A program made the position numbers and the translations under genes. Source: a virus (lineage: Duplodnaviria; Heunggongvirae; Uroviricota; Caudoviricetes). Taken from it: 9,215 nucleotides of DNA. Below are positions 8,102 through 8,411 of this stretch, in pieces (the first letter of the stretch is position 1; each line of letters begins with the position of its first letter). The notes under the pieces were generated by a model that ran no database searches, was not told the DNA's origin, and saw nothing but the letters and a program-made list of their open reading frames with translations. The DNA is taken from the IMG/VR virus record IMGVR_UViG_2703719355_000010. One strand, written 5' to 3'.

Positions 8102-8177
8102 GGCCCTTTAGCTCAGTGGTGAGAGCGAGCGACTCATAATCGCCAGGTCGCTGGTTCAAATCCAGCAAGGGCCACCA
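8102..8177 (+). tRNA. tRNA with anticodon CAU; sequence pattern of tRNA-Ile2 (lysidine type, ileX-like) rather than tRNA-Met
   Basis: Cloverleaf folded by hand: acceptor GGCCCTT/AAGGGCC, D-stem GCTC/GAGC, anticodon loop CTCATAA, T-loop TTCAAAT, encoded CCA. Close to my recollection of E. coli ileX. Confidence 0.8.
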
Positions 8178-8178
8178 A

Positions 8179-8255
8179 CCGCCACTAGCTCATCAGGAAA
8201 GAGCGTCAACCCTTTAAGTTGAGTGTGCGAGGTTCGAGTCCCCGGTGGCGGTCCA
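8179..8255 (+). tRNA. Atypical tRNA or tRNA-like gene; anticodon loop CCTTTAA (nominal anticodon UUU, Lys) with C instead of U at position 33 and an unusual D-loop
   Basis: 7-bp acceptor stem CCGCCAC/GTGGCGG, T-loop TTCGAGT, encoded CCA, 5-bp anticodon stem TCAAC/GTTGA. Deviations: 5' C, D-loop ATCAGGAAA, C33, one A-C mismatch in the T-stem. May be a degenerate or specialised tRNA. Confidence 0.5.
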
Positions 8256-8257
8256 GT

Positions 8258-8333
8258 GCCGACTTAGCTCAGTAGGTAGAGCAACTGACTTGTAATCAGT
8301 AGGTCACCAGTTCGATTCCGGTAGTCGGCACCA
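8258..8333 (+). tRNA. tRNA-Thr (anticodon UGU)
   Basis: Acceptor GCCGACT/AGTCGGC, D-stem GCTC/GAGC, anticodon stem ACTGA/TCAGT with loop CTTGTAA, T-loop TTCGATT, encoded CCA. One A-C mismatch in the T-stem. Confidence 0.75.
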
Positions 8334-8336
8334 TAT

Positions 8337-8411
8337 GCGGGCATCGTATAATGGCTATTACCTCAGCCTTCCAAGCTGATGATGCGGGTTCGATTCCCGC
8401 TGCCCGCTCCA
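8337..8411 (+). tRNA. tRNA-Gly (anticodon UCC; glyT-like)
   Basis: Acceptor GCGGGCA/TGCCCGC, anticodon stem TCAGC/GCTGA with loop CTTCCAA, T-arm GCGGG-TTCGATT-CCCGC, encoded CCA. Matches my recollection of E. coli tRNA-Gly2. Confidence 0.8.

Follow-up and report, generated by a model that had tools for sequence, protein, structure and literature searches.

The closest described relative of the locus reported here is the ileZ-argN-argO tRNA gene cassette of Shiga toxin (Stx) phages, which are lambdoid phages of the 933W/Sakai type; in the Stx2 phage F349 (Stx2a_F349) the gene order is Q, ileZ-argN-argO, stx2AB. The locus in question is a four-gene tRNA array in a stretch of 9,215 nucleotides (nt) from IMG/VR virus record IMGVR_UViG_2703719355_000010 (this whole stretch is referred to below as the window), which is the late region, from the antiterminator gene Q to the lysis genes, of an Escherichia coli lambdoid prophage. 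An initial annotation of the window had named the Stx cassette at this position and had placed the array in the Q-to-lysis interval with no Shiga toxin genes behind it, and these statements proved correct: a Q-like gene lies upstream and a P21-type holin gene downstream, all on the same strand (Table 1), 292 nt of non-coding DNA (8412-8703) separate the array from the holin gene, and no stx genes were found in the window. The array shares with the cassette its post-Q site, an identical first gene, the argN scaffold of its second gene, a 1-nt spacer after ileZ and encoded CCA ends, together with an AraC-type gene that lies upstream in some relatives. It differs in that gene 2 has anticodon UUU and C33 rather than UCG and U33, in that argO (UCU) is replaced by copies of the host genes thrU and glyT, and in the absence of stx. 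Of the four features by which the cassette was recognised, two were found (the site between Q and lysis, and ileZ as first gene) and two were not (argN with UCG, and argO with UCU). The array is probably a mosaic late-region tRNA operon, an allelic variant of the ileZ-argN-argO cassette, in which genes 1, 3 and 4 would serve codon supply and gene 2 would be a remodelled argN.

Three other systems were compared with the locus. The host operon thrU-tyrU-glyT-thrT contains genes which are base-for-base identical to genes 3 and 4; in contrast to that operon, the window lacks tyrU, 206 nt of spacer, thrT and tufB, and carries the pair in a prophage late operon behind ileZ. Rescue tRNAs, such as phage T5's tRNA-Lys(UUU) against AriB and phage tRNA-Thr(UGU) against P2 Old, resemble gene 2, which has the target anticodon and is altered at positions 16, 39, 40 and 41 and in the CNG motif. 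The known examples were described from virulent phages, in which they are divergent relatives of the cognate tRNA by descent, whereas gene 2 belongs to a temperate phage, appears to come from an Arg tRNA and carries C33. Phage tRNAs in general are now being reread as counter-measures to tRNA-cleaving immunity, on evidence drawn nearly all from virulent phages with large tRNA sets. [quoted passage not shown] None of the papers listed by a search on tRNA remolding mentions prophages, and a literature search returned no paper naming ileZ together with argN. Annotations of the genes of the array already exist in hundreds of genomes; the novelty lies in how their origins are read and in the proposed link to nucleases.

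Four tRNA genes on the + strand, and no further ones, were found in the window by ARAGORN, and all four exceeded the Rfam tRNA (RF00005) threshold of 29 bits, with E-values from 5e-07 to 4e-15 (scores in Table 1). The spacers between them were read from the sequence as 1, 2 and 3 nt, and CCA is encoded by each of the four. The array had been described in the initial annotation as four genes set 1-3 nt apart, all with CCA and the first of them CAU (Ile2-like), and the scored tRNA scan that it had called for recovered all four genes and left this description standing. Gene 1 was identical to ileZ of phage F349 at 76 of 76 positions and is annotated as tRNA-Ile by the Prokaryotic Genome Annotation Pipeline (PGAP). 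The proposed alignment to ileZ-argN-argO, when carried out, identified gene 1 as ileZ and gene 2 as a remodelled argN, a relationship which the initial annotation had missed.

Gene 2 reads, by structural element, CCGCCAC-UA-GCUC-AUCAGGAAA-GAGC-G-UCAAC-CCUUUAA-GUUGA-GUGUG-CGAGG-UUCGAGU-CCCCG-GUGGCGG-U-CCA. Pairing is complete in the acceptor (CCGCCAC/GUGGCGG), D and anticodon stems, a single mismatch (A51.C63) occurs in the T-stem, and the T-loop is UUCGAGU; the anticodon loop has 7 nt (C32 C33 U34 U35 U36 A37 A38), and G39, U40 and U41, C16, A20 and the discriminator U73 are further positions of note. Judged as a canonical elongator tRNA, gene 2 shows the cloverleaf (44.4 against 29 bits), G18 G19 and the T-loop but lacks U33. 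The perfect acceptor stem, retained T-loop, C33 and nominal UUU anticodon noted at first inspection were all recovered from the sequence and from the argN alignment. The D-loop had been called odd, a view that was abandoned: it is a 9-nt loop with G18 G19 and A20, an identical loop occurs in one argN allele, and the argO loop (AGCAGGACA) is alike. A register error, about which the hand-folding had raised concern, was ruled out, as ARAGORN, Rfam and the argN alignment all gave the same 7-nt loop CCUUUAA. The minimum free energy folds of the unmodified gene 2 and argN RNAs were not cloverleaves (z-scores -1.5 and -0.4), a result which carries little weight, as is usual for folds of single tRNA sequences.

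The alignment of gene 2 to Stx-phage argN (UCG) was gapless, with 65 of 77 positions identical (84%), while its match to host tRNA-Lys of the lysT family was confined to 47 of 79 aligned positions, most of them universal in tRNAs. In Rfam, gene 2 (44.4 bits) and two argN alleles (43.0 and 43.4 bits) scored alike, so that the low score comes with the scaffold and is no sign of decay. The changes were polarised with a second argN allele, taken from an E. coli prophage with an AraC-type gene upstream. Nine changes were assigned to the gene 2 lineage (positions 7, 30, 33, 35, 36, 40, 43, 44 and 47), and eight of the nine fell within positions 30-47 (Fisher test, p = 1.6e-5). In the anticodon arm, UCG became UUU and U33 became C33, in addition to changes in stem pairs 30-40 and 27-43. 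No pair was broken and all five stem changes keep or strengthen pairing, as in U7.G66 to C7-G66, the double compensatory change G30-C40 to A30-U40, and U27.G43 to U27-A43. Gene 2 is best described, on these comparisons, as a putative alloacceptor-remodelled tRNA and an allele of argN, and it was concluded that it appears to have arisen under structural constraint.

These observations bear on a rival explanation, to which an appreciable though lesser probability was assigned, namely that gene 2 is a non-functional relic: a copy of argN which has lost its Arg identity, is uncharged and hitch-hikes between functional neighbours. The clustering of the changes in the anticodon arm and variable loop, the maintenance of pairing, a loop that is now a perfect Lys/ANN-type C-N-UUU-AA, and a score in the window allele as high as that of the functional-looking argN all argue against such a relic, while C33 and U73, both atypical, speak for it. 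The initial annotation had suggested a decaying pseudo-tRNA; this did not hold for the origin of the gene, where the changes are clustered and preserve pairing and the score is at the level of argN, but it did hold for many sister alleles, which show neutral-looking diversity and sub-threshold variants (see below).

Gene 2 occupies the argN slot of the cassette. Arrays of the form ileZ-Lys(UUU)-argO were found in 12 IMG/VR loci and in O157 PPompW prophages, and their existence indicates that the UUU allele replaced argN in place and that the Thr-Gly module replaced argO later. Neither a U33 revertant of gene 2 nor the new stem combined with the old UCG/UCU loop was matched in IMG/VR (0 matches each). 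A search of IMG/VR for the old stem with the new loop was set aside, since it matched only unrelated tRNA-Lys genes of giant viruses. The argN gene of F349 (3082-3158 of locus L002) has the acceptor stem CCGCCAU/GUGGUGG with G3.U70, where gene 2 and the other argN allele have G3-C70; G3.U70 is the classic identity element of alanyl-tRNA synthetase. This argN also carries a paired CAG/CUG, the stem motif cut by P2 Old.

The main determinants recognised by lysyl-tRNA synthetase (LysRS) are the anticodon bases U34, U35 and U36. Gene 2 has these three bases and has gained 36-UAA-38, as in tRNA-Lys(UUU), the substrate of LysRS; the modification N6-threonylcarbamoyladenosine (t6A) requires 36-UAA-38 (PMC13276492). 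At its origin or at present, gene 2 would be a lysine-accepting decoder of AAA/AAG with a body unrelated to host tRNA-Lys.

It is highly improbable that gene 2 instead alters decoding, either by being charged by arginyl-tRNA synthetase (ArgRS) and inserting Arg at AAA/AAG, or through a shift of register by C33 to U35 U36 A37 so that UAA is read. The E. coli ArgRS depends strongly on C35, which gene 2 has lost, and U34, U35 and U36 are read by LysRS; the loop has the usual 7 nt and is closed by C31-G39, and a register shift would break the stem; and the prophage genes offer no sequence support for recoding. What favours altered decoding is the Arg-type scaffold with A20 retained, and the occurrence of a base other than U33 in the identity-switched Candida tRNA-Ser(CAG) (PMC5041475). 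U33 is near-universal in elongator tRNAs, with exceptions that include eukaryotic initiator tRNAs (C33) and this Candida tRNA (G33) (PMC5041475). Altered decoding by gene 2, as raised in the initial annotation, was accordingly retained in the sense of a shift of the anticodon from Arg to Lys and dropped in the sense of recoding, to which nothing points.

Genes 3 and 4 were each 100% identical to thrU and glyT, respectively, of the K-12-derived strain ER1821R. The alignment to host thrU/glyT which had been recommended thus revealed no divergence, and the suggestion that both genes differ from their host counterparts at one position and are phage-adapted copies was not sustained: in the window they are exact host sequences. 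The host junctions read thrU-ACCA-TCAAG...[tyrU]...CAGGAT-GCGGG (glyT) and that of the window ACCA-T/AT-GCGGG, so that in the spacer TAT (8334-8336) 1 nt remains from the sequence 3' of thrU and 2 nt from that 5' of glyT. From this comparison the Thr-Gly pair corresponds to the host operon with tyrU and the spacers (206 nt) deleted, and the two copies would have been captured from the thrU-tyrU-glyT-thrT operon with loss of tyrU. The same Thr-Gly junction was found in other phages which carry Thr-Gly only, which points to a single capture event that was probably spread later by recombination. The tRNA slot of the lambdoid late region thus appears to be modular, accommodating both phage genes and freshly captured host genes. 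Among the IMG/VR copies of the Gly gene, 11 of 99 have the compensatory change C6-G66 to U6-A66. In two of 103 Thr(UGU) copies the anticodon stem is altered at G42 and U43, reading UCAUC or UCACC for UCAGU, which alters the CNG motif and shortens the stem, a kind of change reported to confer resistance to P2 Old.

Codon usage in PhiR47_1, a complete phage which carries the array, was taken from its annotated genes (13,077 codons) and compared with that in 36 chromosomal genes of the strain with the exact array (12,071 codons). Per 1000 codons, the phage and host values were 7.6 and 2.4 for ATA (3.2x), 12.8 and 5.6 for ACA (2.3x), 12.8 and 7.1 for GGA (1.8x), 17.6 and 8.0 for GGG (2.2x) and 37.2 and 37.2 for AAA (1.0x), ratios which are somewhat inflated by the host sample, as it is small and weighted towards strongly expressed genes such as rpoBC, tuf and those for ribosomal proteins. 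There is a median of 6 tRNA-Lys(UUU) genes per E. coli genome, and thrU and glyT are single-copy genes. As AUA, ACA and GGA are over-used and AAA is not, and six host tRNA-Lys genes are present, codon supply fits genes 1, 3 and 4 and does not fit gene 2. With ileZ, Thr and Gly the array would make more decoders available for AUA, ACA/ACG and GGA/GGG, for each of which the host has one or two genes. The codon-usage comparison foreseen in the initial annotation, run here on the PhiR47_1 genes, was therefore informative for the Ile, Thr and Gly codons and unsupportive for AAA. The use of AGA, AGG, CGA and CGG in PhiR47_1 is 2-6x that of the host, yet the array lacks both Arg tRNAs.

For an estimate of present-day constraint on gene 2, 114 UUU-type alleles from IMG/VR were examined. 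C33 and UUU were invariant in all 114, and the intact allele of the window was the commonest (67 of 114 copies), an observation that tells against a relic. Two other alleles were frequent: C4U/U8C/C11U, with 16 copies, and a 1-nt deletion in the D-stem (U12), usually together with C70U, with 14 copies; the copies of these alleles in loci L014 and L125, respectively, scored under the Rfam threshold, in contrast to the 44.4 bits of the window allele, which does not show this mark of a pseudogene. Nucleotide diversity (pi) was calculated from 68 IMG/VR arrays with a homologous downstream flank, a sample which is not phylogenetically independent; it was restricted in this way because downstream sequences without homology inflate the value for the flank. 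The values were 0.005 for ileZ, 0.008 for Thr and 0.007 for Gly, while that of gene 2, calculated without the 22 nt fixed by the search pattern, was 0.024 and equal to that of the non-coding flank (0.019-0.024). The excess lay in the 5' acceptor strand and D-arm and came from the two linked haplotypes named above. The anticodon arm was as invariant as those of the neighbouring tRNAs (pi 0.003-0.004, over 17 sites, too few for a test), again unlike a relic.

Several of these results weigh against an active gene 2 or against the preferred interpretation as a whole. Besides the composition of the host codon sample and the missing Arg tRNAs, they comprise C33 in place of U33, U73 where E. coli tRNA-Lys has A73, the A51.C63 mismatch and low covariance score (both common to argN), the flank-level diversity of gene 2, and the lack of a PGAP annotation for the sub-threshold alleles in numerous E. 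coli genomes. A relic would account for a diversity at the level of the non-coding flank beside three neighbours that are 3-5 times less diverse, for the frequent disabling alleles (U8C and the D-stem deletion) with their low scores and missing PGAP annotation, for an extra Lys tRNA that codon usage does not call for, and for a young lineage restricted to E. coli and Shigella among species representatives. It was concluded that, in many prophages, gene 2 appears at present to be under weak constraint or in decay; within the interpretation of a remodelled argN, it would be drifting towards a pseudogene in many present-day prophages. If inactive, gene 2 would offer a clean natural case of a tRNA gene between neofunctionalisation and decay. 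Its labelling also calls for caution, as gene 2 is annotated, depending on the allele, as tRNA-Lys, as a 'none' adjacent to a tRNA-Met, or not at all.

The anticodons of the array include those targeted by tRNA-cleaving defence systems. Lys(UUU) and Thr(UGU) are the prime targets of AriB, with Asn(GUU) as the third, and Lys(UUU) is the target of PrrC. AriB, the effector of PARIS, cuts tRNA-Lys(UUU) at U36AAUC|A41; cleavage is abolished by U39A and impaired by A41C and U16C, and phage T5 variants of AriB-target tRNAs restore infection (PMC12409363). P2 Old, the classic anti-lambda function, removes the anticodon arm and needs A37 and a paired CNG at 28-30/40-42; its prime target is thrU, and added host thrU protects little or not at all (PMC12445682). 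At the AriB sites gene 2 has G39, U40, U41 and C16 where the host tRNA has U39, C40, A41 and U16, and the change of G30-C40 to A30-U40 turns the CAG/CUG of argN into CAA/UUG, whereby the CNG motif is lost. A paired CNG is not sufficient for P2 Old, as glyT has the motif and is not among the reported substrates, and the motif is used here only as being consistent with cleavage. Gene 2 is predicted to lack every mapped AriB and Old determinant, as would be expected of any Lys anticodon placed on a foreign body.

In the interpretation of a remodelled argN, this foreign body would render gene 2 insensitive to nucleases for which the anticodon arm and D-loop of host tRNA-Lys(UUU) are the points of attack. 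The stronger proposal, that gene 2 is at present a working nuclease-proof lysine tRNA, made by a temperate phage by setting a Lys anticodon loop on its own Arg-tRNA body, is advanced tentatively and is on balance unlikely. The same doubt attaches to its molecular detail, in which G39, U40, U41, C16 and perhaps C33 would hide gene 2 from AriB, P2 Old or PrrC; in the case of the yeast gamma-toxin, U33C was without effect on cleavage of the tRNA-Glu anticodon stem-loop (PMC2275089). If the proposal were true, decoding of AAA/AAG would be kept up when a resident P2/P4-type element destroys host tRNA-Lys, and alloacceptor remolding would be a route to counter-defence tRNAs in temperate phages, with the UCU tRNA of phage SerU-LTIIb, described below, as a second example of remolding. 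An active gene 2 would provide a simple system for the study of temperate-phage escape from P2/P4-borne Toprim nucleases and of elongator function with C33.

An extension of this proposal to the whole array, whereby it would act chiefly as counter-defence against PARIS, P2 Old and PrrC by replacing destroyed host tRNAs, with codon supply secondary, was considered improbable. The array does unite UUU and UGU, the two prime AriB targets, of which UGU is prime for P2 Old as well; the determinants for AriB and Old are absent from gene 2; and rare Thr alleles in IMG/VR alter G42 and U43. In lambdoid/P22-like phages, moreover, Asn(GUU) and Thr(UGU) genes lie downstream of Q with no Asn codon bias seen (PMC3636060), which fits a defence-related role of the post-Q slot, Asn(GUU) being the third AriB target. 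Against this, the Thr and Gly genes are identical to their host counterparts and should be equally cleavable: as the Thr gene equals host thrU, its cleavage by both AriB and Old is expected, and an extra thrU would give little or no protection from Old. Furthermore, ileZ and Gly(UCC) do not figure among the prime targets reported, and the biases in ACA, GGA and AUA match plain codon compensation.

A further tRNA with a changed anticodon was observed in phage SerU-LTIIb (1122-1197 of locus L130), where a tRNA that derives from thrU, and shares the Thr-TAT-Gly junction, carries UCU (Arg) as its anticodon. It has the additional changes U16C, U20C, G24A and A31G, and is the reverse of an E. coli experiment of 1998 in which Saks and co-workers reportedly recruited an Arg(UCU) tRNA to Thr(UGU). 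Anticodon remodelling would thus have been repeated in this cassette family, from Arg to Lys in gene 2 and from Thr to Arg in SerU-LTIIb.

The 411-nt array region was found as a 100% identical stretch in the chromosome of E. coli Z1323CEC0019. At a coverage of at least 80% the region was present in 532 of the 5426 complete genomes of E. coli, or about 10% of them, with PGAP annotations as tRNA-Ile, -Lys, -Thr and -Gly, and the isolated phages PhiR47_1 (from ECOR13), vB_EcoS-689R5 and vB_EcoM-606R7 also carry the array. Gene 2 by itself was found in 798 of the 5426 genomes; in about two thirds of these carriers it is <99% identical to the window allele, and the sub-threshold alleles belong to that group. 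A scan of 185,579 species-representative genomes found the remodelled anticodon arm in E. coli and Shigella flexneri only, a range too shallow in phylogeny for covariation tests.

The features of the array and its surroundings are listed in Table 1.

Table 1. Coordinates of the tRNA genes and of neighbouring genes and signals in the window
Feature	Coordinates	Strand	Evidence
Q-like late antiterminator, upstream boundary	5373-5927	+	Pfam DUF1133 1e-106; Phage_antitermQ 27.5 bits; PHROG 753 'anti-termination protein Q-like' 2e-80
Late-promoter-like site TTGACT-18-TATATT	5924-5953	+	Promoter scan
isrK RNA after late-promoter-like site	unit 5924-6037; terminator 6016-6032	+	Rfam 69.4 bits; terminator scan
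AraC-type helix-turn-helix regulator gene, directly upstream of array	7360-8073	+	Pfam HTH_AraC, HTH_18
Sigma-70-type promoter-like site (-35 TTGATT, 17-nt spacer, -10 TATTAT)	8063-8091	+	Consensus scan
Gene 1, tRNA-Ile2 type (CAU), = ileZ	8102-8177	+	ARAGORN; Rfam 72.5 bits; PGAP tRNA-Ile
Gene 2, putative argN-derived tRNA, anticodon arm remodelled (UUU)	8179-8255	+	ARAGORN Lys(ttt); Rfam 44.4 bits; PGAP tRNA-Lys
Gene 3, tRNA-Thr(UGU), = host thrU	8258-8333	+	ARAGORN; Rfam 73.8 bits; identical to thrU of ER1821R
Gene 4, tRNA-Gly(UCC), = host glyT	8337-8411	+	ARAGORN; Rfam 64.9 bits
Two strong hairpins 3' of last tRNA	8413-8469, about 8470-8545	+	Folds -23.5, -27.6 kcal/mol; z -4.4, -4.2
Intrinsic-terminator-like hairpin and U-tract	8619-8644	+	Terminator scan: GCCCGCTTTTGCGGGC then TTTTCTTTTC; fold z-score -3.2
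P21-type holin S, downstream boundary, start of lysis cassette	8704-8919	+	Pfam Phage_holin_2_1 1.4e-35; PHROG holin

The -10 hexamer of the sigma-70-type site ends 10 nt before ileZ, and the pattern TTGNNN-17-TATTAT, at an equal distance to ileZ, is kept in at least 5 otherwise divergent classes of upstream sequence among the IMG/VR loci. The operon's own promoter would drive constitutive transcription, including in the lysogen, and the terminator-like hairpin upstream of the holin gene is likely to be the end of this constitutive transcript. The late-promoter-like site and isrK with its terminator are likely to form a pR'/tR' unit, from which read-through by Q-modified polymerase to the tRNAs and lysis genes would constitute a second, Q-dependent mode of transcription. 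Between the end of the AraC-type gene and the array lie 28 nt, and the gene extends over the -35 element of the tRNA promoter; in other E. coli prophages that same gene was found upstream of ileZ-argN-argO, which suggests a conserved regulator-tRNA module. The first of the two strong hairpins starts 2 nt past the last CCA, and the segment which holds them (8413-8545) is 94-100% conserved among arrays and had no match to an Rfam family at the gathering threshold; the hairpins may have a role in processing or stability.

The Q gene is followed immediately by isrK, by c4-a1b1 targets and a C4 antisense RNA (67 bits), and by an ORF6N anti-repressor (5947-6147, 6201-6782), a P1/P7-style c4-ant module in the late leader like the isrK locus of Salmonella Gifsy. 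A small TrmB-like open reading frame lies between the ORF6N anti-repressor and the AraC-type gene. In the early-right region of the prophage a hok/sok-type toxin-antisense locus was detected at 3603-3927 (Rfam sok 110.6 bits; a Hok/Gef coding sequence is annotated in the matching genome), and the inducible phage PhiR47_1 carries a PanA/PanT toxin-antitoxin pair at its left end (308-1352 of locus L126). The first and last 107 nt of the window (1-107 and 9109-9215) are perfect inverted repeats of each other, and the right arm matches the end of a copy of the insertion sequence (IS) IS1203 (IS3 family) that truncates a DUF1327 gene in Z1323CEC0019; the window appears, from this arrangement, to be a 9-kb late-region fragment bracketed by inverted IS copies, with a disrupted lysis cassette, and hence a prophage remnant.

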